From positions 480,001-544,000 of the forward strand of contig CAWGSK010000012.1 of assembly GCA_963825055.1 (NCBI GenBank): a stretch of 64,000 bases of DNA. Direction: 5' to 3'. The translations under genes were made by a program, and so were the position numbers. This DNA comes from an uncultured Gemmatimonadales bacterium. GTDB lineage: Bacteria > Gemmatimonadota > Gemmatimonadetes > Gemmatimonadales > GWC2-71-9. Below the pieces are notes generated by a model. It saw nothing but the letters and a program-made list of their open reading frames with translations. It was not told where the DNA came from and made no database searches. Below are positions 9,917 through 35,839 of the stretch, piece by piece (the stretch's first letter is position 1; the number at the start of each line of letters is the position of its first letter).

Positions 9917-10038
9917 GCGGAGTCCCCGGGTAGCGTGCAGGTCTCAAAGGAAGGACCCCGTAAGATGGTCCGGTGGGGCCTCCCGGGCCAGTCCAGCCGG
10001 GGCTCAGCATCCGGAGGCTCCCGTGCGTACACAGAGAG

Positions 10039-10509
10039 TTGTCCGTCCCTGACCCGGAGTGCACCCTGACCCTGCGTCCCCTCCTCCTCGGCATTGTCCT
10101 GCTGGGCCTCCTCGGCACCGGCATCGAACTGCTCCTCCTGGGGCACACCGACGGGATCAGCCAGGTGGCCCCCGTGCTCCTGACCGGCGTCGCGATCCTG
10201 GCGGTCGTCTGGCAGTTCCTGGGGCCGGGCGCCGGATCGCTGCGGACGCTCCAGGCCGTCATGCTGCTGTGCGTCGTGGCAGGACTGGTGGGTATTGTGC
10301 TTCACTACCTGGGCAACCGGGAGTTCGAGCTGGAGACCTACCCTGAACTGGCGGGCTGGGCCCTGTTCCGTGAAACCATGACCGGTGCGACGCCCGCGCT
10401 GGCCCCCGCCGCGATGATGCACCTGGGGCTGCTTGGCCTGCTGTATACCTTTCGGCATCCGTTGCTTGCCCATGAGGGGCAGGCCTCCACTTCTCCCATG
10501 GAACCCTGA
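10039..10509 (+). CDS. Hypothetical integral membrane protein (about 4 TM; start uncertain, TTG assumed)
   Basis: Four hydrophobic stretches, GC3-rich codons, stop 1 nt before next ATG. Confidence 0.7.
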   Translation: MSVPDPECTLTLRPLLLGIVLLGLLGTGIELLLLGHTDGISQVAPVLLTGVAILAVVWQFLGPGAGSLRTLQAVMLLCVVAGLVGIVLHYLGNREFELETYPELAGWALFRETMTGATPALAPAAMMHLGLLGLLYTFRHPLLAHEGQASTSPMEP

Positions 10510-10510
10510 T

Positions 10511-11155
10511 ATGCGCCTCTCCCGCATCCTTCGCACGGCCCTTCTCTGCTCCGCCGCGCTTGTCCCGGCGGCCGCCGCCCAGGTTGGCAAGCCGGTCGAC
10601 ATCATCAACCCCAACCTGGCCGGGGAGCCGGAACTGCTCGCCGTGCCGAACCTGGACGCGGCGGTGGTGAAGGCAATCATTGACCAGCGGCCGTTCTCCG
10701 GCATCCTGCCGCTCAACGTCATGCTGTCAAAGCTGCGCACCCCCGAGCAGCTGACTGAGGCCTACCGCCGGCTCTTCATCCCGATCAACCTCAACACCGC
10801 AACCCGCGAGGAAATCCTCCTGATCCCGGGCGTCGGCAACCGGATGCTGCGGGAGTTCATGGAATACCGGCCGTATCGTTCGCTCGCCGTCTTCCACCGG
10901 GAGATCGGCAAGTACGTGGACGACACGGAACTGGCCCGGCTGGAGCAGTATGTCTTCGTGCCGATCGACCTGAACACGGCGAGCGACGAGGACATTACCA
11001 GTATCCCGGGTGTGGGCCGCCGGATGCTCCGGGAGTTCAAGGAGTACCGGCCGTACCGGAACATCGAGCAGTTCCGGCGCGAGATCGGCAAGTACGTCGA
11101 TGCGCCTGAAGTGGCCCGGCTGGAGCGCTATGTCACCCTGACTCCCGCGCCGTGA
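10511..11155 (+). CDS. Secreted helix-hairpin-helix repeat protein (ComEA/HHH_3-like, three repeats)
   Basis: Signal peptide; INPNLA, INLNTA...IPGVG, IDLNTA...IPGVG repeats. Confidence 0.8.
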   Translation: MRLSRILRTALLCSAALVPAAAAQVGKPVDIINPNLAGEPELLAVPNLDAAVVKAIIDQRPFSGILPLNVMLSKLRTPEQLTEAYRRLFIPINLNTATREEILLIPGVGNRMLREFMEYRPYRSLAVFHREIGKYVDDTELARLEQYVFVPIDLNTASDEDITSIPGVGRRMLREFKEYRPYRNIEQFRREIGKYVDAPEVARLERYVTLTPAP

Positions 11156-11189
11156 CGTCCAGCAGGGAACCTGCTATCTTGGCAGGGTC

Positions 11190-11534
11190 ATGACCACGGC
11201 ATTGATGCGGCGGATCCTCTCGCTGGGCCTGCTCCTGACCTTCTTCGGGGGCGGGCTCGGCATGCCTCTCGCGGACGCCGCCCTCGACCACCGGGCGGCG
11301 AACCACGAGGGCGGCCGGATCCATGTCGAGTCGAGCGGCAATCCGCTGTGCCACGCCGAGCGTTGTGTGCTCGGCCTCGCCGCGGCGAACACGGGCGTGG
11401 CCACGAGGACTGGTACCCCCGCCCTCGGCAGCGTCCTCCATGATGCCCCGCTCATCCTGTACTTCCAGCCCGCGGCTCCCCGGCCGGCCGGGCGCCCCTC
11501 CCATCACAGTCGCGCACCACCACCGCTTTCCTGA
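11190..11534 (+). CDS. DUF2946/CruR-like leader protein with C-terminal RAPP arrest motif
   Basis: N-terminal signal/TM, His-rich segment, CHAERC, Pro/Ala linker, ends HHSRAPPPLS; directly upstream of a metal-uptake operon. Confidence 0.75.
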   Translation: MTTALMRRILSLGLLLTFFGGGLGMPLADAALDHRAANHEGGRIHVESSGNPLCHAERCVLGLAAANTGVATRTGTPALGSVLHDAPLILYFQPAAPRPAGRPSHHSRAPPPLS

Positions 11535-11639
11535 GCGATAGCGCGGCCTGAGCCGGCTTCGAGCCGTATCGGGACCGCCTGACGTCGAGACGTGGTCACC
11601 CGGGGCCCGGGTACCGCGGCCATCCATCTCAGGAGAGTG
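11524..11639 (+). promoter_or_regulatory. Anti-SD/SD pairing element (translational attenuator) for the metal-uptake operon
   Basis: CGCTTTCCTGAG (11524-11535) can pair with CTCAGGAGAGTG (11628-11639), 12 bp including 2 G.U; the latter contains the AGGAG SD of ATG 11642. Confidence 0.65.
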
Positions 11640-11641
11640 CC

Positions 11642-13024
11642 ATGCATCCGACATGCCGCCGAATGGCGGTCCTGTTCATCCTGCTGACCGCTCCAGCGGC
11701 CAGCCTGGCCGGGCAGCAGCCCGTATCGGCCGACTCCATGCGCCAGGGGCTCCGGGCGCTGACCGCGCGCCTCGATTCGCTCGAGGCGGGACAGTGTCCG
11801 CCAGCGCCGCTACAGCTGCCGGTGGTGCCGGGAACCGGCAACGCGGCAACTGATTCCCTCAGCGCGGCCATGCAGACCCTGGCCCGGCGCATGAACGCCA
11901 TGGCCGGCGCGCGCTGCGAACAGGTCACCGTGGTGATGGCTGACTCCGCCCGTGATGACCTGGCATCACTCCGGGAGGCTGCCGCCGGGGCTGCCGGCGG
12001 CGTGCCGGAGACGGCGCCCGCCGATACCGGTGCCGGACCGCAGTTCGTGAGTCTCCAGCGGAACCTCAACAAGTACAATCCCGAAATCAGCGCGACGGGT
12101 GACATCCGCCTCGTTGCGCGTGACGAAAATCCCCAGCGTGACAACGGTATCGCACGGGAGTTCGAGCTGGCGTTCCAGAGCAACCTCGATCCCTACTCCG
12201 CGACCAAGATCTACCTGACCTTCGAGGACGAGGAGATCGGGGTGGAGGAGGGGTACATCTACTACTCCGGCCTGCCGGGCAAGCTGCGGGTGGATCTCGG
12301 GAAGTTCCGCCAGGAGCTGGGCGACCTGAACCGCTGGCATCTCCACGCCCTTCCGGAGACCGAGTATCCCCTGGTTTACCAGCGGTACCTGAGCCCCGAG
12401 GGCCTCTCAGGGGTGGGACTGTCGCTCTACACGGTATTGCCCTTCGGGCTCGCCGGCGGGACACACGAGCTCTGGCTGCAGGGGACCACCACGTCAGAGC
12501 TGGATCCCCTCCTCGCCGGCAGCCGGCAGCCGCTTGGTCTGGCCCGGATACAGAACTTCTGGCAGCTCACGCGGAGCACGTACGCCCAGGTCGGTTTCAC
12601 CGGGATGCTCGGCGAGAACACCGACAGCAGCCTCACCAGCAACCTCACCGGCGCGGACTTCCGGTTCACCTGGCGCCCGCCCAACGCGGGCACACGCCGT
12701 GACCTCACCCTGCGGCTCGAGGGCTACCGCCTGCACGCGAACCTCGCCGGCACCGTGACCAACCGGTACGGCATGTTCGCCGACGCGCAGTTCAAGATGA
12801 GCCGGCGGTGGACCATCGGCGGACGGTACGACTACGTCGAGGCCGCCCGTGGGCCGTATGCCGACGAGTGGCGTATCACGCCCGCGCTTACCTGGTGGCA
12901 GAGCGAGTTCGTGTACCTCCGCCTGCAGGGGCAGCATCGGCGGGATCTGGACGGCGCCACCCGCAACGACCTCACGCTCCAGGCCGTCTGGGCCATGGGA
13001 CCGCACAAGCACGAGACCTACTGA
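11642..13024 (+). CDS. Outer-membrane beta-barrel protein associated with metal ABC transporter
   Basis: Signal peptide, N-terminal helical region, alternating beta-strand pattern, NRWHLH and C-terminal GPHKHETY His motifs. Confidence 0.75.
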   Translation: MHPTCRRMAVLFILLTAPAASLAGQQPVSADSMRQGLRALTARLDSLEAGQCPPAPLQLPVVPGTGNAATDSLSAAMQTLARRMNAMAGARCEQVTVVMADSARDDLASLREAAAGAAGGVPETAPADTGAGPQFVSLQRNLNKYNPEISATGDIRLVARDENPQRDNGIAREFELAFQSNLDPYSATKIYLTFEDEEIGVEEGYIYYSGLPGKLRVDLGKFRQELGDLNRWHLHALPETEYPLVYQRYLSPEGLSGVGLSLYTVLPFGLAGGTHELWLQGTTTSELDPLLAGSRQPLGLARIQNFWQLTRSTYAQVGFTGMLGENTDSSLTSNLTGADFRFTWRPPNAGTRRDLTLRLEGYRLHANLAGTVTNRYGMFADAQFKMSRRWTIGGRYDYVEAARGPYADEWRITPALTWWQSEFVYLRLQGQHRRDLDGATRNDLTLQAVWAMGPHKHETY

Positions 13025-13058
13025 GCCGGTCCGGCCGGCCTGAACGAGGATATCAACC

Positions 13059-14087
13059 ATGTACCTTGCCGCACTCATGCTCCTGAGCGGGCTGGCTGGA
13101 CCGGGCACTCCCGCGCCGGCCACCGCCCCGATCAAGGTCGTCACCAGCCTCACGACCTACGGGGCGATCGCCCGCGAGATCGTCGGGGACCGGGGCACCG
13201 TCACATCCATCGCCCAGGGTGACGAGGACCCGCACTTCGTCCAGCCCAAGCCGAGCTTCGTCGCCATCCTGCGCGATGCCGACCTGTTCGTCACCACCGG
13301 ACTCGACCTGGAGCTCTGGGTTCCGCCCCTGCTCGACCGCGCCGGCAACCGGAAGGTGTCCGAGGGCGGCCCGGGATATGTCACGGCCTACACCGGCATC
13401 AAGCTCCTCGAGATTCCCTCATCCGTGGACCGGGCCCAGGGCGACCTTCACGCGGATGGCAACCCGCACATCCACACGGATCCGGTCAACGCGATCATCA
13501 TCGCCCGGAACATCCTGACCGGCCTGAAGCGCATCGCACCCTCGGACGCGGCTTACTACACCCAGCGGGAGCAGGGCTTCGAGCAGCGCGTGCTCGAGGC
13601 CACCGTGGGCCCCGAACTGGTCCGCCTCCTGACGCCGGCCACCACGTTCGAACTGCTGCGCAAGGACACGTTCCTCGACTTCATCCAGGGCAAGTCCTTC
13701 CAGGGCGCGCCGCTGTCCAGCCGCCTGGGCGGGTGGCTCAAGCAGGCCGAGCCGCTCCGCGGCAAGGACATGGCGTGTTACCACAAGGAGTGGGCCTACT
13801 TCACCAGCCGCTACCAGATCCGGTGTGTCGCGTACATCGAGGCGAAGCCGGGCATTCCGCCCACACCACGGCACGTCCAGGAAGTCATCACGCTGATGCG
13901 GGACAAGCACATCCCTGCCCTGTTTGCCTCGAATTACTTCAGCCACAGCCAGATCCAGCAGGTGGCGGAGAAGACCGGCGCGACCGCGGTGATCGTTCCC
14001 GAGAATACCGAGGGCGCTGATGGCATCCACACCTATTTCGACTTGATGAACACCTGGATCACCAGCCTGACCGCGGCCTACAGATGA
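13059..14087 (+). CDS. Metal (Zn/Mn) ABC transporter substrate-binding protein, ZnuA/TroA family
   Basis: EDPHFVQPKPS, GLDLELW, GNPHIHTDP, YHKEWAYF, EAKPGIPPT. Confidence 0.9.
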   Translation: MYLAALMLLSGLAGPGTPAPATAPIKVVTSLTTYGAIAREIVGDRGTVTSIAQGDEDPHFVQPKPSFVAILRDADLFVTTGLDLELWVPPLLDRAGNRKVSEGGPGYVTAYTGIKLLEIPSSVDRAQGDLHADGNPHIHTDPVNAIIIARNILTGLKRIAPSDAAYYTQREQGFEQRVLEATVGPELVRLLTPATTFELLRKDTFLDFIQGKSFQGAPLSSRLGGWLKQAEPLRGKDMACYHKEWAYFTSRYQIRCVAYIEAKPGIPPTPRHVQEVITLMRDKHIPALFASNYFSHSQIQQVAEKTGATAVIVPENTEGADGIHTYFDLMNTWITSLTAAYR

Positions 14088-14121
14088 GGGAGCCAGCCAT
14101 CATGACGCGAGGAGAGACCCG

Positions 14122-14946
14122 ATGCTCGAATTGATGCTGCCGCCGCTGGTCGCCTGCATGGTGATCGTGGCCATCCACTCCTACCTCGGCCTGCACATCA
14201 TCGCCCGGGAGGTCATCTTCGTCGACCTCTCCCTGGCACAGATGGCGGCGCTCGGCTCGGCGGTGGCAATCCTGGCCGGGGCCCAGCCGGACTCCACCTC
14301 CGCGTTCATTTATGCGCTCGGCTTCACGACGCTCGGTGCCTTCATTTTCTCCCTGACCCGGACGTCGGGCCGGGGACGGGTGCCGCAGGAGGCGATCATC
14401 GGTATCGTCTACGTGGTCGCGTCCGCCGCCGCGATCCTCGTGGCGGACCGCACGCCCCGCGGTGGCGAGGCCATCAAGGACATCCTGGTCGGCAGCCTGC
14501 TCTGGGTGACGTGGCCCGTGATCATCCGCCTGGCGCTGGTCTACGTGGCGCTCGGCGTGTTCCACTTCTTCCTGCGGAAACGCTTCCTGACCATCTCGTT
14601 CGACCCGGAGGCGGCGGAAGCGAAGGGCTGGCGGGTACGGTGGTGGGACTTCTGGTTCTATCTCTCGTTCGGCATCGTGATCACGTTCTCGGTCCCGGTG
14701 GCGGGTGTCCTGCTGGTGTTCTCGTTCCTGGTGGTTCCCGCCGCGGTGGCATTCCAGTTCAGCCGCCGACAGGGGGTACTGGCCGTGTTGTCCTGGCTCA
14801 CCGGCCTCGTCGCCAGCGCGGCGGGGCTGGCCATCTCCTTCCACTATGACCTGCCGACCGGCCCTGTGATCGTCTGCATGTTCGGGCTGCTGCTCCTGGT
14901 CGCCTACCTTGCCCGGAGGATGCTGCCCGGCTCCGTCGAGGCCTGA
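14122..14946 (+). CDS. Metal ABC transporter permease, ZnuB/MntB family
   Basis: Polytopic; FVDLSLAQMAALG, EAIIG, SFDPEAAEAKG, GVLLVFSFLVVPAA, DLPTGP. Confidence 0.88.
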   Translation: MLELMLPPLVACMVIVAIHSYLGLHIIAREVIFVDLSLAQMAALGSAVAILAGAQPDSTSAFIYALGFTTLGAFIFSLTRTSGRGRVPQEAIIGIVYVVASAAAILVADRTPRGGEAIKDILVGSLLWVTWPVIIRLALVYVALGVFHFFLRKRFLTISFDPEAAEAKGWRVRWWDFWFYLSFGIVITFSVPVAGVLLVFSFLVVPAAVAFQFSRRQGVLAVLSWLTGLVASAAGLAISFHYDLPTGPVIVCMFGLLLLVAYLARRMLPGSVEA

Positions 14947-14950
14947 GGGG

Positions 14951-16150
14951 TTACCTCGCGGTCGTAAGATCGAGGGCGGCCCGGACCAGCGCGCTCCAGC
15001 GCGCGAGGGCCGGGTCGTACTCGGCGTCATTGATGGTGTTCACTACGCCGATCACGGCGGTGGCCGTGCGCCGGTCGAAGAAGAGAAACGCGCGGAACCC
15101 CCCTTGTTCCCCCGTGTGTCCCACCAGGGTATCCGGCCCTGCCCGCATCAGGAAGAAGGACAGCCCCATGTCACCGGGGGCAATAGCGCTGTCGCTCACT
15201 GCGACGACCGGGCGCCACATCTCCTCGAGCGAGGCCCGGGAGAGGACCGTCGGGTAGCGCGCGGTGACGGCGCTGTCCGGTGCCGGCGTGTCCATCAGGA
15301 ATCGGGCCCAGGTGACGAGGTCATCGAGGGGCGCGTTCCAGCCTCCGTTCGGAATGGTGATCCCGGGGTCGAAGTCCCGGCCGTGCTCCACGACCCGCGC
15401 ACCCGCACTGTCCTGCTCCAGCGTGTAGCGGTTGGAGCGCGAAGCCGCGAGCCAGTAAGGCGTGGCCCCGAAATAACTCCGCGCCATGCCAAGGGGCGTC
15501 CAGATGTTCTTCTGGATATAGGACTCGTACGGCGTTCCGGTGAGTTGTTCCAGTATCCGGGCGAGATAGATGAACGCGGGGTTGCTGTAGCCGTACCTTG
15601 AGCCAGGGGCGAATCGGAGTTCCATGTATGGCATCATGGAAGCCAGCTGCTCCCATCGCGTCGGTTCGAAGGGCTGCCACGGTTCGGTCCCGCCCCAGGG
15701 CCAGGTGGGATTCTGGAAGCCCGAGCTGTGGGAGAGGAGCATCCGGATCGTCACGTCGTCCATTGATCCCCAGGGGTCGTGAACCTGGCGGAGCTCCGGC
15801 AGGTAGTCGGTGACGCGATCGTCGAGCGTCAGGAGCCCGCGGTCGCGAAGCTGCATGATGGCGACGGCGGTCAACGTCTTGGTGATGGAGCCGTAGTGGT
15901 ATATGGTGCCGGGGCCCGCCCGTTCGCCGCGGTCGCGATCCTGCCACCCCGCATCATGCCGTGCGATCACCCGGCCTTCCCGAAGCAGCACGACACTCCC
16001 GCCGACGATGCTGTCGCCTGCCAGGTGGCGGTCGAATGCCGCCGTGAAGGCATCCCACGCCTTCGGCACGCCGGCCTGTGCGCCGAGTTCGGGAGCACCC
16101 GCGAGGACGGCGAGGACGAGTGGGACAAGCCGGCGGATGGGATATGGCAT
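14951..16150 (-). CDS. Serine hydrolase, beta-lactamase/AmpC-like family
   Basis: Signal peptide; SITK (SxxK), LLSHSSG, YSN, GHTG. Confidence 0.9.
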   Translation of the reverse strand: MPYPIRRLVPLVLAVLAGAPELGAQAGVPKAWDAFTAAFDRHLAGDSIVGGSVVLLREGRVIARHDAGWQDRDRGERAGPGTIYHYGSITKTLTAVAIMQLRDRGLLTLDDRVTDYLPELRQVHDPWGSMDDVTIRMLLSHSSGFQNPTWPWGGTEPWQPFEPTRWEQLASMMPYMELRFAPGSRYGYSNPAFIYLARILEQLTGTPYESYIQKNIWTPLGMARSYFGATPYWLAASRSNRYTLEQDSAGARVVEHGRDFDPGITIPNGGWNAPLDDLVTWARFLMDTPAPDSAVTARYPTVLSRASLEEMWRPVVAVSDSAIAPGDMGLSFFLMRAGPDTLVGHTGEQGGFRAFLFFDRRTATAVIGVVNTINDAEYDPALARWSALVRAALDLTTAR

Positions 16151-16206
16151 TGGCGGATCCCGTGCGGGGGAATGCGGGAGGATAACGCGGGAGGTGTTCC
16201 GGATGC

Positions 16207-16238
16207 ACGCGGGCCCCGGGAAACCCCGGGGCCCGCGT
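16207..16238 (-). terminator. Hairpin immediately downstream of tRNA-Ser
   Basis: Perfect 14-bp stem ACGCGGGCCCCGGG-AAAC-CCCGGGGCCCGCGT; no strong U-tract. Confidence 0.65.
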
Positions 16239-16240
16239 CA

Positions 16241-16327
16241 CGGACAGGGTGGGATTCGAACCCACGAAACCCTTGCGGGTTTACCGGTTTTCGAGACCGG
16301 CTCCTTCAACCACTCGGACACCTGTCC
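16241..16327 (-). tRNA. tRNA-Ser(CGA), CCA not encoded
   Basis: GGACAGG/CCTGTCC acceptor stem, anticodon arm CCGGT-CTCGAAA-ACCGG, long variable arm, GGTTCGAATCC T-arm, G discriminator. Confidence 0.97.
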
Positions 16328-16468
16328 TCTGGAGGTTGCGGGGTCAAGAGGGCTCGGGGTCGAGGGGTTATTCGACTTTGGGCCCCGCGGACTCCGCGGC
16401 GAGTAAACTACCGGGACCCCGCCCCTTCTGCAACACGTTCTCAGTGGCGCAAGGCCAGGCTATAGCAT

Positions 16469-16909
16469 TCATTGTCTTGCCCAGTTCATGACGTGCTCCA
16501 CGACGGCGGGGACCGCAGTGCCACCAGACATTGCGGGCCGGTAGACGCTCGAGCTGAGCTGCCGTCGAGCGTATGGCAGGAATACAGAGTCCGACACGGC
16601 CACCCAGCCGATAGTGCACGGATCCGCGTGCCCCGTGGAGTCCACGACGAAGGCCGCTACCACCCTGCCCCGGCGCGGCCCGGTCATCGGGGAGCGCACG
16701 GCTCCTGCGCGGATCAGGGCCGGCGGGGTGTCAATCGGCGAGACCTTCCGTGTTTCCTCGACTACGGTCCGGACGCTGTCTCCATTGATGCCATCACACC
16801 GCCCAGCCAGCTCTGCGGGCTTCACGGGACCCGTCTGGACTGACCCCGCTCTGCCGCCGCACGCGGCGAGCGCGATCAGCAGGACCCCGTGTGATCCCCA
16901 GCCCCGCAT
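16469..16909 (-). CDS. Lipoprotein with TonB C-terminal-like domain
   Basis: Lipobox LAAC; GRVVAAFVVDSTG...YRPA..GG.AV pattern. Confidence 0.65.
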   Translation of the reverse strand: MRGWGSHGVLLIALAACGGRAGSVQTGPVKPAELAGRCDGINGDSVRTVVEETRKVSPIDTPPALIRAGAVRSPMTGPRRGRVVAAFVVDSTGHADPCTIGWVAVSDSVFLPYARRQLSSSVYRPAMSGGTAVPAVVEHVMNWARQ

Positions 16910-30085: not shown

Positions 30086-31135
30086 CTACTGGACCGGGGG
30101 GATACTCGTGACGGTGCTCCCGAACGCGCACTCCCCGAGCGTGATGGTCCCGCTCTCGGTCAGGTCGTCACGGAGGACGTGGGCCTCGCCGGGCTGGCCG
30201 GCCTGGCAGGGGCCCGTGGAAATGGCGTAAATCCGCCCCTGGCTGTCCACGGAAACGTCGGCGTTCCCGGGGATGTCCACCCCGTTCCCCGCCCCGCGGA
30301 CCACCGTGCGCGTCCGGGTGTCGAACTCCATCAGCCCCTCCGTGAATGAGCTGATGAAGAGGCGGTCGTCAGCTCCGACGGCGATGGCCCCCGGCCCGGT
30401 GCCGAAGCCGCCGAAGCTCGCCACCTCCGTGCGGGCCACGGGATCCACGATCGACAGCCGGCCCACCCCGGTGAAGTAGTCGCCGCTGCTCACCACGTAC
30501 AGAAGCCCGTCCGTCCCTTCCGCGGCAAAGCCGGCATTGCCCGGCCCGGGAAGCGGGATGGAATCGATCCCGGTGGCGTGCTGGTTGGTGACCGGATCGA
30601 TCACCGTCACCCAGCTCGGCCCGGCGGGAGCGAAGTTCACCAGGTTGCCGTTCAGCACGAACACGCGTCCGCGGGTGGCGATAATGGCCTGCGGATAGAC
30701 GCCCACGGCCACGCTGGCGGTGTCACCCGACTGGAGGTTGATGCGGGTCACCGTGTTGAGCAGGGGATTGGCGACATAGGCCAGGGTGTCGTTCACAATG
30801 GCGGATCCGGTCGCGCCACCGCCGGCGGGGAGCGGAATGATGCGTACACCAAGGGAGGCCAGGCTGATCACGGCAACGGCATTGTCGGCACCCAGAGGCA
30901 CCAGGGCCGTGCCTCCCCGGGCGGACACCCCGACCGGCGTGGGCGCCGTCCCCCCCAGTGGGAGGGTGACCGCCGCGGCAGGGGCGGCAACCGGCACGAC
31001 GCGAAGCGTCGCCTCGGTGCTGTTGACGACAAGGAGCACCTCCTCCGCTGGCGGGAGTGGGGCCGTCGTCTCGGCGCAGGCCCCGAGGATGGACACGAGG
31101 GCGATGAGGCACGCAGGGCGGAGGAAGGGCGTCAT
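30086..31135 (-). CDS. YncE-like beta-propeller lipoprotein (BtuG-like)
   Basis: Lipobox LGAC; repeats VVNS, YVANP, VGVYP, VTVIDP, LSIVDP; coupled to TonB receptor. Confidence 0.75.
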   Translation of the reverse strand: MTPFLRPACLIALVSILGACAETTAPLPPAEEVLLVVNSTEATLRVVPVAAPAAAVTLPLGGTAPTPVGVSARGGTALVPLGADNAVAVISLASLGVRIIPLPAGGGATGSAIVNDTLAYVANPLLNTVTRINLQSGDTASVAVGVYPQAIIATRGRVFVLNGNLVNFAPAGPSWVTVIDPVTNQHATGIDSIPLPGPGNAGFAAEGTDGLLYVVSSGDYFTGVGRLSIVDPVARTEVASFGGFGTGPGAIAVGADDRLFISSFTEGLMEFDTRTRTVVRGAGNGVDIPGNADVSVDSQGRIYAISTGPCQAGQPGEAHVLRDDLTESGTITLGECAFGSTVTSIPPVQ

Positions 31136-33162
31136 GGCAGGTTCACGGTAAGGGTAAGCGCGGCGGAACGGCCCGGCGTGGGATATCCCGCAATGTAGGT
31201 GGCTCGTTCGTCGAGGAGGTCCTGAACATCGACGCGGAGGGCGGCGTACGACGTTACGCGTCGCTCGAGCCCCCCGTCGAGAAGGTTGATCGGTGGCAAC
31301 GGGTTCTGGCCGGCGCCGTTGGGATACCGGCGCCCGATCCGGTGCCAGCGCAGGTCTATCCGCCAGGATCCGGGCGTCCAGGAGAGGTCCGAGGACACGG
31401 TCGAGCGAGGACGGTACTGCACCTGGGTACCCGAGGGGATATAGGTCACGGGCGTCCAGGTCGCCGTAGCGCCGGCGCTGAGATTCGGACGCGGCTTCGC
31501 ACGGAGTACGATTCCGGCGCCGCCCCGACGGACATCGAAGTTCCTCGGGCTCCACACGAACCTGAAGTCGGGACTCCAGAGGATCATGTCGTCCACCCGG
31601 CCGTACTGCAGGCGGATTGAGCCTTCGACCGGCATGCCGAGCGCGAGGCCGTGCCGGGTGATGCCGGCCTGCACCTCCCACCGCACCCGTTCCGGCCGCA
31701 AGTCAGGATTGAGGGCAACGCCGACCCCTTCCCGGAAGAACAGGTCGGAAAGCGCCGGCGCGGTCACGGCGCTCCCCAGCCCGGCCGACAGGGTCGTCGC
31801 ACTCTTCGTCCACGCAACATCGACCCGACCGCTCGCCACCGGGGAGCCATCGGTCCACCAGTCGAGCCGGAGTGCGGGCGCAACGCTCCACCACGCGTCG
31901 CCGCCCCGGGTGACCGTCGCACTCCAGCCCACAGCGCCGCGATCGAACGACGCCCCCCGGCGGACACCGTCGCCCCGATAGGCATCGTGGCGGGCCTCGA
32001 GAGAAAGCCGCGCGCTGCCGCTCCACCTTCCGAGCGCAACGCGATGTGGAAGGATGATTGCGCCCCGGAGACCAAGACCCTCCGTGGCAGCATCGTACGC
32101 CGGACCGGACGGTGGCATGGGATCGCGCGCCCGCGTCCTGAGCCACTCCAGTGATCCCTCTCCTTCCAGATGCCTGCCGCCGCGCCCGCCGACAAACAGG
32201 GACCGGTCACTGGCCCTCGCGCGGGGGGTCGGATTGGTCACGATACCGGGGATGCCCCGGTCTGAAGCGGTGGCCCGCACCGTGGCGGTGAACCCGCCGC
32301 GCCATCCTCCGTGGAGGGACCAGCGGCTTCCATCGCTGTTGATCCGATCGGCTTCGCCACTGCCGCGCACGGCCGGCACGTCGTACCCGAAACCGTCAGC
32401 GAAGGTCTCCCGGCGGAGCACGAGGGTCCCGCGGCCCATCGTAGCCGCGAGGCGGGCTGCCCCTGCCCCATGCGGTCCCACCGTGACCGCCGCTTCCGGC
32501 GCGATATCCTGGCGGGTTTCGACGCGGAGTACGCCCGCGATGGCGCGGGAGCCTTCACGGGCCCCCTGCGCGCCGGGCTCGAGGGTCACCCGGGCTACGT
32601 CGCCGGTCGAGAGGGAGCCCAGGTCGGCGCGCCCGGTGAGGGGATCGTTGGCCGGAAAGCCGTCGATGAGCACCAGCAGTTCATCAGGGGAACCGCCACC
32701 GAGTTGCGGCGTTGCGGGGCCCCCCGAACCCGATCGCCTGACCACCAGCCCAGCCCACCCGTCCAGCGCCCGTCCAAGATCCCCTCCCCGGCCCCGGAGC
32801 TGGTCGCCCGAGATCGCGAGAGCTGGCGCCTCGGGCTGCACAGTCACGGAATCGAGCAGCCATGTTGTGGGCATGAGGGCAATTGCCACCCGGGAATCCA
32901 TCCCGGGCACCAGGTCGAGCCAGCGGCGGTCCGGCGCGTATCCGGGAGCGCGGACCACGATCTCCACCCGACCGGCGGGCAAGCCGCCAAACCGGAAACT
33001 GCCGTCCACATCGCTCGTCGCGGTCCGTTCACCGAGCCGGATCTCCGCATCAGTGATCGCGGCGCCGGTCTCGCCGTTGCGCACGACACCGCTCACCATG
33101 ACCGGCGACTGGGCCGCGGCCACACCGGCCCAGACCATCGCGAACAGGGGGAACCACCTCAC
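31132..33162 (-). CDS. btuB: TonB-dependent receptor, probable cobalamin transporter
   Basis: Signal peptide, carboxypeptidase-regulatory-like N-domain, LVLIDG plug, NPDLRPE, YPTPGRS; in riboswitch operon. Confidence 0.8.
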   Translation of the reverse strand: MRWFPLFAMVWAGVAAAQSPVMVSGVVRNGETGAAITDAEIRLGERTATSDVDGSFRFGGLPAGRVEIVVRAPGYAPDRRWLDLVPGMDSRVAIALMPTTWLLDSVTVQPEAPALAISGDQLRGRGGDLGRALDGWAGLVVRRSGSGGPATPQLGGGSPDELLVLIDGFPANDPLTGRADLGSLSTGDVARVTLEPGAQGAREGSRAIAGVLRVETRQDIAPEAAVTVGPHGAGAARLAATMGRGTLVLRRETFADGFGYDVPAVRGSGEADRINSDGSRWSLHGGWRGGFTATVRATASDRGIPGIVTNPTPRARASDRSLFVGGRGGRHLEGEGSLEWLRTRARDPMPPSGPAYDAATEGLGLRGAIILPHRVALGRWSGSARLSLEARHDAYRGDGVRRGASFDRGAVGWSATVTRGGDAWWSVAPALRLDWWTDGSPVASGRVDVAWTKSATTLSAGLGSAVTAPALSDLFFREGVGVALNPDLRPERVRWEVQAGITRHGLALGMPVEGSIRLQYGRVDDMILWSPDFRFVWSPRNFDVRRGGAGIVLRAKPRPNLSAGATATWTPVTYIPSGTQVQYRPRSTVSSDLSWTPGSWRIDLRWHRIGRRYPNGAGQNPLPPINLLDGGLERRVTSYAALRVDVQDLLDERATYIAGYPTPGRSAALTLTVNLP

Positions 33163-33950
33163 CTGCCGTCCTCGCCGGGCCGCAGCGGAGTCACCTGGGG
33201 GCTGCCGTCAGTCCAGGACTCGACCTTCACCGGCCAGCCGAAGACCCGCTCCATGGTAGCCTTCTGGAGCACCTCGACCGGCGGTCCCGCCGCCGCGAGT
33301 CTGCCTTCCGCGAGAAGCAGCATCCGATCCGCATAGCGGGCGGCCAGGTTCAGGTGGTGCGTCACCAGCAGCGCGCCCAGGCCTTCATCGGCGAGGCCAC
33401 GGACGAGTTCCAGCACCTCCATTTCATGCCGGACATCCAGCGCGGTCGTCGGCTCGTCAAGGAAGAGCACCTTGGGCGTCTGGGCCAGGGCGCGCGCCAC
33501 GCGCACCCGCTGCCATTCGCCGCCGGAGAGGGTGTCGATGGCCCGGTCGCGAAGCTCCCAGACATCGCATCGCCGCAGGGCATGTTCCACGGTCTCGCGA
33601 TCAGTCCGGCCAAGCGGCGCCACCGGCCCGGCATGAGCGTAGCGGCCAAGCATGACCGCCTCGCGCACGAGGAGCGGATAGAACACGGTCTCACGCTGGG
33701 CCACCACGCCCACCGTCCGCGCCAGGTCCCGGCGGGGCCAGGCACCGACCGGCCGGCCGAGGATGCGCGCTTCCCCCGACTCGAGCGACTGGGTGCCGAG
33801 GAGGGCCCGGAGCAGTGTGGTCTTTCCGCAGCCGTTGGGGCCTACCACAGCGAGCAGCTCACCCGCGGAGAGCGTGCACGACACGCCCACCAGCGCCGGA
33901 CTGGCCGCGCGTGGATACCGCACCGTGAGTTCCCGCGCCGCGACGATCAC
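33159..33950 (-). CDS. btuD: Cobalamin/Fe-chelate ABC transporter ATP-binding protein
   Basis: GPNGCGKTT, LSGGEWQRV, LDEPT, THHLNLA. Confidence 0.85.
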   Translation of the reverse strand: MIVAARELTVRYPRAASPALVGVSCTLSAGELLAVVGPNGCGKTTLLRALLGTQSLESGEARILGRPVGAWPRRDLARTVGVVAQRETVFYPLLVREAVMLGRYAHAGPVAPLGRTDRETVEHALRRCDVWELRDRAIDTLSGGEWQRVRVARALAQTPKVLFLDEPTTALDVRHEMEVLELVRGLADEGLGALLVTHHLNLAARYADRMLLLAEGRLAAAGPPVEVLQKATMERVFGWPVKVESWTDGSPQVTPLRPGEDGR

Positions 33951-34924
33951 GTAACCGTGCGGCGCAGGAGTACGGCAAAGAGGGGCACGCCGACCAGCGC
34001 CGTGACCACGCCGACTGGCAGCTCCACCGGACGCACAACGGTCCGGGCGACGGCATCAGCGAGCACGAGGAAGGCGCCTCCTGCCACGAAACTGAGCGGG
34101 AGCAGCGAGCGGTGGAGCGGGCCGGAGATCCGGCGCACGGCGTGCGGGACTACGAGCCCGATGAACCCGATGATCCCGCAGGCCGCCACGCCCGCCGCCG
34201 TGAGCAGCGCGGTGGCTGTGTAAATGATGCGCTTGGTCCGCTCCACCTCGGTGCCGAGGTGCTGGGCCGTTTCCTCGCCGAGGACGAGCAGGTCAAGCGG
34301 CCGGGCGTGATAGAGGATGAGCCCGGCGGGAATGATCGCATAGAGGAGGAAGATGCCGGTCGCGGGCCATGACGCCGCGCCCAGTCCGCCGAGGAGCCAG
34401 AGGAAGGCGTTCCGGAGTTTGTCCGCGTCCGACAGCACGATGATCGCGCTCATCAGCGCGCCGGCGAACGCGCCGGTGACCACGCCGGCCAGGAGCAGGA
34501 TACGGGGGTCGAGGCGTCCGCCCGGTACGACGCCCAGGCGGTATACGAGGGCAATCGCCAGCAGGGCGCCGGCAAACGCCGCGATCGGAATGGCCCACGG
34601 GCCGCCGAGCCCGAGCGCGATGGCCACCACGGACCCGAGGCCGGCCCCGCCGGAGAGCCCGAGGAGGAACGGGTCGGCCAGCGGGTTTCGGATCAGGGCC
34701 TGGAGGGCGGCGCCGCAGAGGCCGAGGCTCCCCCCAACCAGGAACCCGAGGAGAACGCGCGGCGCGCGGATTCGGCGGACGATAACGGCCGCGGGCGCGG
34801 ACGGGTCGGTCAGTCCGGCGATCACCTCTCCCACGCTGAGCGGGACCGATCCCACCAGGACGGCCCCGATCATGATGACGACCGTTCCTGCGCCGAGGAC
34901 GAACGACAGCCGGACGCTCTTCAC
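33947..34924 (-). CDS. btuC: Cobalamin/FecCD ABC transporter permease
   Basis: IRAPRV, RNPLADPFLLGLSGGA, LGEETAQHLG, IGFIGLVVPH, ELPVGVVT. Confidence 0.87.
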   Translation of the reverse strand: MKSVRLSFVLGAGTVVIMIGAVLVGSVPLSVGEVIAGLTDPSAPAAVIVRRIRAPRVLLGFLVGGSLGLCGAALQALIRNPLADPFLLGLSGGAGLGSVVAIALGLGGPWAIPIAAFAGALLAIALVYRLGVVPGGRLDPRILLLAGVVTGAFAGALMSAIIVLSDADKLRNAFLWLLGGLGAASWPATGIFLLYAIIPAGLILYHARPLDLLVLGEETAQHLGTEVERTKRIIYTATALLTAAGVAACGIIGFIGLVVPHAVRRISGPLHRSLLPLSFVAGGAFLVLADAVARTVVRPVELPVGVVTALVGVPLFAVLLRRTVT

Positions 34925-35805
34925 TCGCGGCTCCCGATTTGCTGCCGCAGCTCGCGGATCGCTTCCGGTGCGCGCGGGCTGGGCCGGCTGAAGGCGGAAC
35001 TGGTTACGTGCACGAAACGCCGTTCCCGGACGGCGGGCACGGCCTGCCACACCGGGCGCGAGGCGAACGCGGGCAGTCCCTCGGCGGACGTAAGAATGAG
35101 GTCGGGATTGCGGTCTACCACCGATTCCACGCTGACCTGCGCGGACGAGGCAGGCAGGTCGCCGAAAATGTTGCGTCCTCCGGCGCGTTCCACCAGCTCG
35201 CTCAGGAAACTGCCGGCCCCCACGGTCATGGGAGGCTCATCCCAAACGAGAATGAGGATGCCCGGTCCCTCCCCGTCGCGCGCCACCGATGCCGCTGCAA
35301 GCGCGCTGTCGAATACGGCGACGAGCGAGTCGGCGGCCGCCTCGCGGCCGGTCAGGACACCCAGGACGCGGGCCATTCTCGGCACGTCGGCCAGACGGTC
35401 GGTGGAAAGCTGCACGACGGGAATGCCAAGGTCGGAGAGGCGGCGGGCGGCCTGTGCGTTGGCAGTCGAGTGGTAGAGGACGACGAGATCGGGGTGGAGC
35501 CCGAGCACCGCCTCCAGGTTGGGCTGGATCCCGTCGCCGGCACTGGGAACATCCAGGGCGGCGGCGGGATAGTCATCCCACGCGCTCCGCCCGGCGACCA
35601 GGCTGTCCGCCCCGATGGCGAACAGCATCTCGGTCGTGGCGGGGATGAGTGAGACGATGCGGGTGGCGGGAGCGGCCAGCCGGAGGGTATCGCCGGCGTC
35701 GTCCACGACGACGCGGGCGCCCTGCCCCTGGTCCGAGGGTGCGCAGGACGCGACCAGGGCCAGGAGACATCCGCACAGGAGACGAGCCGGTGTCCGCATA
35801 CGCAT
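34921..35805 (-). CDS. btuF: Cobalamin-binding lipoprotein (start may be 35799 or 35814)
   Basis: Lipobox VASC; RIVSLIPATTEMLFAIG, PNLEAVL, AGGRNIF, SRPSPR. Confidence 0.85.
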   Translation of the reverse strand: MRMRTPARLLCGCLLALVASCAPSDQGQGARVVVDDAGDTLRLAAPATRIVSLIPATTEMLFAIGADSLVAGRSAWDDYPAAALDVPSAGDGIQPNLEAVLGLHPDLVVLYHSTANAQAARRLSDLGIPVVQLSTDRLADVPRMARVLGVLTGREAAADSLVAVFDSALAAASVARDGEGPGILILVWDEPPMTVGAGSFLSELVERAGGRNIFGDLPASSAQVSVESVVDRNPDLILTSAEGLPAFASRPVWQAVPAVRERRFVHVTSSAFSRPSPRAPEAIRELRQQIGSRE

Positions 35806-35806
35806 A

Positions 35807-35839
35807 CCGCCCATCCCCGGGCTGGACGGAGATGGGCGG
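35807..35839 (-). promoter_or_regulatory. RBS-sequestering hairpin (riboswitch expression platform)
   Basis: CCGCCCATCTCCG-N7-CGGGGATGGGCGG, 13 bp, buries GGGGA just before btuF start. Confidence 0.6.

Follow-up and report, generated by a model that had tools for sequence, protein, structure and literature searches.

The 64-kb stretch analysed here (the window; contig CAWGSK010000012.1 of an uncultured Gemmatimonadales bacterium, all coordinates being positions in this stretch) derives from a genome of 68% GC that is estimated to be 87% complete with 6% contamination. It contains an open reading frame (ORF) for a 114-residue leader peptide that precedes genes for an outer-membrane porin-like protein, a ZnuA-family solute-binding protein (SBP) and a ZnuB-family permease. 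A first-pass annotation had suggested that ribosomes arrested at the RAPP motif of the leader control this operon in response to a metal, and the present comparison argues for arrest-gated access to the porin gene's Shine-Dalgarno (SD) sequence, with zinc as the likely signal. On re-reading of the sequence, the leader ORF with its C-terminus HHSRAPPPLS and stop codon at 11190-11534 proved exact, and the RAPP codons at 11511-11522 were confirmed as well.

Leader ORF and the operon behind it

The features of the leader and of the operon are as follows.

11152..11180, plus strand: putative sigma-70-type promoter from sequence reading, with a -35-like GTGACG (11152-11157), a 17-nt spacing and a TG-extended -10 box TATCTT (11175-11180).
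11190..11534, plus strand: leader ORF, 114 amino acids, DUF2946-like RAPP arrest-peptide candidate (ORF reading, family alignment).
11214..11270, plus strand: hydrophobic N-terminal segment, about residues 9-27, putative signal peptide or signal anchor (hydropathy, alignment).
11274..11366, plus strand: candidate metal site formed by D29, H34, H45, E47, (C54), H55 and C59 (family conservation).
11511..11522, plus strand: RAPP codons, with the predicted P-site proline at 11517-11519 and A-site proline at 11520-11522 (sequence and published stall register).
11642..13024, plus strand: outer-membrane porin-like protein, 460 amino acids, about 16 strands and a helical N-terminus, homologous to a Vibrio Omr-like protein (AlphaFold model, profile).
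13059..14087, plus strand: Cluster A-I (ZnuA-family) SBP with predicted His/His/His/Glu ligands (PF01297, E 5e-49).
14122..14946, plus strand: ABC-3 (ZnuB-family) permease with no ATPase gene after it (PF00950, E 7e-36).

Among 213 porin loci detected in genomes of Gemmatimonadota, the 80 best (L001-L080) were compared; ten of these lack upstream sequence, which left 70 for evaluation. A RAPP-like ORF ends before the porin gene in 66 of the 70 loci (L013 and L014 included; one of the 66, L066, looks frameshifted) and is absent in four, so that the conservation of the leader, its RAPP motif and its histidines upstream of homologous operons, named in the first-pass annotation as a check, was borne out. 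In a further set of 49 loci, nine of which duplicate earlier ones and at least one of which (L130) is probably spurious, the leader was found in 43 of the 46 with enough sequence. Loci L038, L040, L044 and L068 have no leader ORF, yet an S-R-A-S-P-like remnant persists in them about 150 nt before the porin gene, and their weak SD is covered by a short stretch of complementary pairing; in three of them a divergent upstream gene presumably encodes a BlaI-type regulator. These four look like decayed leader alleles.

In alignment A4 of the leader family, the 55 leaders of the type found in the window (window type; mean identity 35%) have invariant H34, C59, R108, P110 and P111 and nearly invariant D29 and H55. 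The expected residue is present at the candidate ligand positions D29, H34, H45, E47, C54, H55 and C59 in 53 (Glu in the other two), 55, 40, 39, 9, 54 and 55 of these leaders, respectively, and 35 of the 55 have an extra Cys or His at an additional ligand position, where the two residues interchange. The conserved sensor pattern thus reads D..H / HxE / HxxxC, with one Cys located 49 residues before the Arg of RAPP. A Cx4C metal motif, as read earlier from the single sequence, was rejected for the family, C54 being a Cys in just those nine relatives, and the conserved set consists of D29, H34, H45/E47, H55 and C59. The CxxxC motif of CutF, a copper-responsive leader of Rhodobacter capsulatus, was not found among the 55 aligned leaders. 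A disulfide sensor was likewise rejected for the family because most members have a single conserved Cys.

An independent profile search with the leader yielded 481 clusters. Among the best 150 of these, the distance from Cys to Arg is 48-50 in 145, R[AGS]PP lies within 10 residues of the end in 145, HxxxC occurs in 143 and CxxC in none; in 84 of 88 leaders the Cys stands 47-49 residues before the Arg. All six Arg codons occur at the R of RAPP across 93 loci; in 47 of these the codon is CGA, AGA or AGG, unexpected for GC-rich genomes. A RAPP-like end alone is not rare, as 67 ORFs of at least 60 amino acids in any frame of the genome end R[AG]PP-like, and the case therefore rests on conservation.

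Two sensor types precede the porin, the window type in 36 loci and a PVHDExxCxxC type in 29. In the porin tree, one CxxC leader stands among window-type loci and one window-type sensor has the RNA tail of the other type (L008, L015), which suggests that sensor modules may have been swapped between HxxxC and CxxC leaders. Distant relatives (L113-L133) have intermediate motifs, E-x6-C-x3-H-x4-C and in some cases CxxC, after an AxA-type cleavage site, and link the window type to DUF2946-like leaders.

The -10 box ends 9 nt before the leader ATG. A TAnnnT box was found 4-9 nt 5' of the candidate leader start in 69 of 93 loci, compared with 8 of 983 internal ATG/GTG codons and none of 93 target starts; because of this box, the leader ORF appears to have its own promoter and its mRNA is probably leaderless or nearly so. 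The score of the promoter at 11152-11180 is under the threshold of a consensus promoter scanner. Among 87 leader promoters no operator dyad is conserved, the top count being 7 as against 3-6 in shuffles. Short inverted repeats, AGCAGG/CCTGCT and CCTGC/GCAGG (11161-11186), overlap the -10 box of the window, with no conserved dyad in relatives. Kyte-Doolittle means over 15 residues amount to 1.0-1.7 across leader residues 1-30, and the N-terminus is hydrophobic throughout alignment A4. Directly 5' of the leader lies a gene for an HHH repeat (helix-hairpin-helix) protein (10433-11155), which is not beside the leader in 80 relatives.

The target had been described as a ZnuA/ZnuB-type operon, which holds for its second and third genes, but the directly gated gene is that of the porin-like protein. 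The latter has no Pfam or NCBIfam match; its AlphaFold model built with a 46-sequence alignment (pLDDT 76.7, compared with 36 for the single-sequence model) is closest to general porins and OprO/P, a predicted fold that rules out a TonB-dependent receptor. Alignment of the SBP to Lmb and YfeA gave His, His, His and a probable Glu as ligands, present in 73, 73, 68 and 57 of 73 cases, and a His3-Glu ligand set in a binding protein favours zinc over manganese. The permease is the only ABC-3 gene found in the 87%-complete genome, in which no ZnuC-type ATPase scored over the ZnuC cut-off. Likewise, in all 69 loci with at least 3 kb of downstream sequence, binding protein and permease are followed by no co-oriented ATPase gene. 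Of a ZnuABC transporter, the SBP and the permease are thus present and the cognate ATPase is missing. No dedicated ATPase was found elsewhere in 12 genomes, the best matches to the MntA model lying beside a FecCD permease in 11 of them and one second match (L247) beside a ZnuB-like gene. The porin-SBP-permease module may borrow a BtuD/heme-type ATPase (33159-33950) or work without ATP. A minus-strand cluster at 31132-35814, comprising a BtuF-like binding protein, FecCD permease, ATPase and TonB-type receptor, probably serves B12 or heme uptake.

Pairing of the leader 3' end with the porin SD

The RNA elements between the end of the leader and the porin start are listed below, together with a competing stretch.

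11449..11459, plus strand: second SD-complementary stretch within the leader coding region, which competes in naked-RNA folds (folds, among them that of 11400-11700).
11524..11535, plus strand: anti-SD strand at +8 to +19 relative to the P-site codon; it overlaps the stop codon of the leader (sequence, folding).
11536..11627, plus strand: intergenic region with two GC-rich hairpins that juxtapose anti-SD and SD, without a U-tract (fold).
11628..11644, plus strand: SD-containing strand (AGGAG at 11631-11635) and porin start codon ATG at 11642 (sequence, folding).

The pairing of 11524-11535 with 11628-11639 over the SD of the next gene, through 10 Watson-Crick and two G.U pairs, was found as annotated. 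The helix is part of both the minimum free energy and the centroid structure of 11500-11660 (-69.9 kcal/mol, z -2.5, with 5 of 200 shuffles as good). The duplex alone amounts to -19.4 kcal/mol; among 5000 shuffled tails 0.08% reached this value, as did 5 of 432 synonymous variants of the P-L-S-stop codons, and within 11190-11617 no other 18-nt stretch pairs better with the SD region than that of 11524-11535. No intrinsic terminator was found between leader and porin, and an Rfam scan of 10000-16500 returned only a tRNA at gathering score. The footprint of a stalled ribosome has its edge near +15 from the P-site codon. Masking of the RNA to +15, with the stall register borrowed from PMC10951233 and from the toeprint of the Bordetella leader CruR in PMC12992588, cuts the opening energy of the ribosome-binding site (RBS) from 13.6 to 7.7 kcal/mol at this locus.

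The same masking lowers the RBS opening energy by at least 2 kcal/mol in 50 of 65 loci (L066 and L076 dropped). With porin-to-SBP junctions at equal spacing as the null, the SD partner lies inside the masked footprint in 50 of 59 loci versus 4 of 58 control junctions, and a drop of at least 2 kcal/mol is seen in 45 of 60 loci versus 6 of 60. SD partners are most frequent at +10 to +13, past the Pro codons, and their number drops sharply beyond +14. Covariation of the pairing, also named beforehand as a check, was supported by swaps between 44 independent sister pairs (88 loci; five dropped for uncertain starts or duplication), in which the own tail and SD paired better than the swapped ones in 27, worse in 8 and equally in 9 (p 0.0009), while an upstream control window gave 20 versus 16. 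Column-wise counts cover the CxxC clade rather than the window's own subclade; in 28 sequences cut to the anchor positions, pairing is seen in 89.7% of the cells, and compensatory change on both sides occurs in 21 cells, compared with 10.8 after shuffling. RNAalifold gave no pairs on the unanchored alignment A1, because the SD there is one column out of register, and found the anti-SD helix after trimming to the RAPP and SD anchors.

A chance origin, that is, a shadow ORF of a GC-rich genome combined with an accidental helix, could draw on the 67 R[AG]PP-like ends in the genome, on the inherent SD complementarity of Pro codons and on the other pairings offered by long folds. It is contradicted by the comparative data, namely conservation at the protein level with synonymous change, the promoter motif at the start and the null-junction control, and is extremely improbable.

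Several results weigh against the switch. When the entire naked leader mRNA is folded, 11449-11459 takes the place of the anti-SD as partner of the SD, so that the expected freeing of the SD on blocking of RAPP and anti-SD held in the local fold and not in the whole mRNA. A single ribosome barely lowers the opening energy in the whole-mRNA fold, from 11.4 to 10.8 kcal/mol, or from 10.8 to 10.1 if pairing is limited to a span of 130 nt; the switch is seen only with the coding region cleared (13.1 to 7.5) or with three ribosomes queued. The opening energy is sensitive to the footprint edge (12.2 at +11, 10.4 at +13). A terminating ribosome opens the RBS about equally on average (7.98 vs 7.95), and therefore only dwell time separates the two states. 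In the CxxC clade, the number of pairs with two-sided change is not significant (5 vs 3.5; 55 of 500 shuffles), and in a set of loci collected by the leader (see below) the SD partner lies in the footprint in just 34 of 60. For the arrest-type leader and for the anti-SD within the stalled-ribosome footprint, the comparative evidence stands on the side of the proposed switch, and access to the SD is very probably gated by arrest.

The stall might instead act mainly by blocking Rho-dependent termination, with the anti-SD helix in a secondary role. This is the published mode of CruR, a Rho-like motif occurs in the genome, and the 3' halves of the leaders are C-rich (skew 0.27) with no intrinsic terminator behind them. 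The C skew, however, belongs to codon position 2 (0.49 vs 0.05) rather than to position 3 (0.20 vs 0.16) and thus follows Pro/Ala content; moreover, the anti-SD is positioned and co-varying, and separate leaders recur within one operon before individual genes. We regard Rho-based control of this operon as improbable.

Zinc as the candidate signal

A leader-first profile search matched 77 of 251 genomes of the phylum, and 70 leaders with an assigned target, a subset of 102 matches, were evaluated. Their targets are 30 ZnuD-like receptors, 14 porins of the present type, 13 copies of an unnamed receptor, 10 TolC-MFP-RND efflux operons and three others. In 18 relatives a second window-type leader follows directly after the permease gene, with its Cys at -49 or -50, 15 of them before ZnuD-like receptors and three before the unnamed receptor; the SD partner falls in the footprint in 15 of 17 such second leaders. 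One leader-headed receptor has ZnuD as its best PDB match (E 1.5e-22). Neither a second leader copy nor a leader-headed ZnuD-like receptor was found in the 87%-complete genome of the window. The unnamed receptor represents a 790-residue outer-membrane family (CarboxypepD_reg + OMP_b-brl_3) that is a frequent leader target (L185:681-3062, L174:620-2992 and 11 more).

Since 67 of the 70 targets are outer-membrane proteins, and RAPP peptides were first described at sec/yidC genes, the leader might be a SecM-type monitor of secretion or of the envelope, or might tether the mRNA at the translocon for an outer-membrane protein, in either case with no metal sensing. Such a role is at odds with the strict conservation of a His and a Cys and their constant spacing to the Arg, with the exchange of His and Cys at the extra ligand position in 35 of 55 leaders and with the identified targets being metal transport genes, and is highly improbable.

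A search of 72,556 plasmids for the porin gave one matching record, a Vibrio campbellii replicon on which the three genes occur in the same order (L248:3216-6072) with 24, 28 and 31% identity, a porin profile score of 43 bits and no ATPase. No leader was scored before this operon, and its start is preceded by two TGTTAT-N3-ATAACA palindromes, which resemble Zur boxes. In V. parahaemolyticus, according to PMC9817125, the omr-znuAII-znuBII operon belongs to the Zur regulon and is induced 283-1034-fold by zinc deficiency; judging from gene order and annotation, it should be orthologous to the V. campbellii locus. It has the same three-gene order without an ATPase as the operon of the window, and differs from it in being controlled transcriptionally by Zur, with no leader ORF found. 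The single Fur-family gene in the genome of the window resembles Fur more than Zur; the genome also has an MntR-family gene beside MntH, as well as a ZIP gene. For none of 15 Fur-family proteins was the Zur model the top-scoring one, with 14 of 34 matches scanned and a model that may miss divergent Zur.

Zinc is a probable signal because the SBP has the His3-Glu set, leaders precede ZnuD-like receptors, and the Vibrio homologue has Zur-box-like palindromes in place of a leader; further reasons are the zinc-deficiency induction of the V. parahaemolyticus operon, the separate MntR-MntH system for manganese uptake and the lack of an operator palindrome at the leader promoters. The earlier proposal that the leader may sense Zn or Mn can accordingly be narrowed, with zinc much likelier than manganese. 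On the other side of the balance, the top NCBIfam model for nine ZnuD-like proteins is ZnuD in four and a heme receptor in five, all below cut-off, and the 10 leaders heading efflux operons have motifs indistinguishable from the rest, so that the direction of the metal effect is not readable from the leader sequence alone. As the target is an importer and the stall opens the SD, the metal should release the stall, a direction to which we give a high probability.

The same switch could also respond to another metal or to several (Ni, Co, Cu, Mn), or the stall could be strengthened by the metal, as happens in CutF. Leaders of this family precede CzcCBA-like efflux operons and the unnamed receptor, sometimes in one operon with near-duplicate leaders; at the efflux locus L138 stalling opens the SD as well (22.5 to 8.6); CxxC-type leaders, copper-like by motif, take the same position in 29 loci; and His-only CutF-like clusters precede Ni/Co genes and CutF is Cu-induced. 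However, 44 of the 70 leader-first targets are ZnuD-like receptors or the present operon, the Vibrio homologue has its Zur-box-like sites, metal-on control of an importer makes little physiological sense, and the stall effect at efflux loci is mostly weak, with a drop of at least 2 kcal/mol in 3 of 10 and several starts uncertain. A metal other than zinc, or the opposite polarity, is therefore unlikely. In L166 and L172 the order leader-TolC-MFP-RND-leader-receptor occurs in one cluster, with near-duplicate leaders in L166; the efflux pump is apparently co-regulated with the unnamed receptor, and the two may possibly form a metallophore export/import pair. A weakly matching leader precedes a MerC-domain gene in L200:698-1117.

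In the proposed mechanism, the leader would be made from an mRNA that is probably leaderless and would enter SecYEG. A stalled ribosome would cover the anti-SD and leave the porin SD free, as in silico folding and conservation suggest, and porin, ZnuA and ZnuB would be made. About 50 extended residues span the distance from the peptidyl transferase centre to the periplasm (bioRxiv 2021.02.06.430026); because C59 lies at a distance of 51 residues from the P-site Pro, with every other candidate ligand N-terminal of it, the metal site appears well placed for periplasmic metal. From these published distances, the fixed 49-residue spacer would keep the cluster of Asp, His and Cys immediately beyond the translocon's periplasmic mouth. 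Zinc, when present, would bind or fold the cluster, the pull would release the stall, the ribosome would terminate and the helix would re-form, turning translation off, as expected from the role of the target. The leader would do in these genomes what Zur does for the same operon in Vibrio. A point against the periplasmic-ruler step is that CruR, with the same spacing, does not need its signal peptide, and for that reason the step is not secure. Taken as a whole, a cis-acting translational switch for zinc uptake is a reasonably probable account of the locus. A wider and decidedly tentative extension is that Gemmatimonadales deal with zinc starvation without Zur, through dispersed nascent-chain sensors, one for each outer-membrane transporter gene and even in mid-operon; a His-rich site with one Cys would read periplasmic zinc by way of a 49-residue ruler at the SecYEG exit, and HxxxC and CxxC modules would be interchangeable on one RAPP/anti-SD output.

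Relation to known arrest leaders

The kinship with CruR and CutF noted in the first-pass annotation is supported by the RAPP motif, the Cys-Arg spacing and the anti-SD stem, and the leader would work like CruR (RAPP, spacer, importer, metal-off) with the output of CutF (anti-SD stem). CruR of Bordetella pertussis (Bp2923, DUF2946/PF11162, before bfrG; PMC9426467, arrest in PMC12992588) is also the first gene of a metal-import operon with a C-terminal RAPP, and shares with the leader the predicted metal-off logic; it has an export signal, to which the hydrophobic N-terminus seen here by hydropathy and alignment may correspond. Its C90 and R139 are 49 residues apart, the same Cys-to-Arg spacing. 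CruR has a CxxC motif, whereas the leader of the window has one invariant Cys in HxxxC and the upstream D/H/HxE; the output of CruR is Rho termination, whereas that of the leader is apparently SD masking, with zinc-type targets and a Gemmatimonadota host. The leader scores 15.8 bits with PF11162 (E 0.024), under the gathering cut-off of 23.7; weak matches were obtained for 6 of the 55 window-type leaders (best E 0.017), and 1 of 26 CxxC-type or distant leaders passed the cut-off. In place of the copper-related operons of CruR-type leaders, the targets are porin-ZnuA-ZnuB, ZnuD-like receptors, the unnamed receptor and RND efflux.

CutF, which precedes cutO (bioRxiv 2022.11.11.516240 = PMC9973294; bioRxiv 2025.02.05.636593), is described as an exported leader with a proline-rich C-terminus and an anti-SD stem-loop over the next SD. 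With 114 residues, the PP at 110-111 and a 107-nt gap, the leader falls within the published rule-based filters for CutF-like leaders, and an anti-SD stem-loop is present in silico and by conservation, though context-dependent in whole-mRNA folds. CutF carries a CxxxC motif and a PPP, needs EF-P and stalls in response to Cu, which turns detoxification on, whereas the leader has RAPP and HxxxC and precedes an importer, so that the opposite polarity is predicted. SecM, ApdA and ApdP (PMC10951233) share the RAP/P-type stall and the melting of an SD-masking helix by the stalled ribosome, but they monitor protein export and have no metal site.

Both CruR and CutF respond to copper, and how the metal releases or strengthens the stall is left open in the discussion of PMC12992588. 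The accessible part of that survey of RAPP upstream ORFs (uORFs) discusses metal homeostasis and copper, with no mention of zinc and no anti-SD analysis seen, and "Gemmatimonad" occurs neither in its accessible text nor among the supplement matches listed. The published source list has at least 9 rows of RAPP uORFs before zinc-annotated receptors and at least 137 before DUF2796 genes, and sensing of other metals by leaders of this kind has already been proposed in print for Ni/Co. No paper on a zinc-sensing arrest leader was found in the literature searched, most subscription papers lying outside its coverage. The leader is probably a variant, linked to zinc, of a type of switch that has been tested to date for copper alone. 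The family has 481 clusters, strict spacing, apparent natural swaps of the sensor, what look like decayed leader alleles and a target that is Zur-controlled elsewhere. It would thus be a compact system for studying a second metal, in which it can be asked whether a ribosome reads zinc in the periplasm, what determines specificity, and whether the peptide or the RNA sets the polarity.

Several genes are duplicated across contigs of the assembly (e.g. C12/C25, C12/C26, C9/C31, C2/C29), consistent with the contamination estimate of 6%. The window also carries a tRNA-Ser(CGA) at 16241-16327 on the minus strand.

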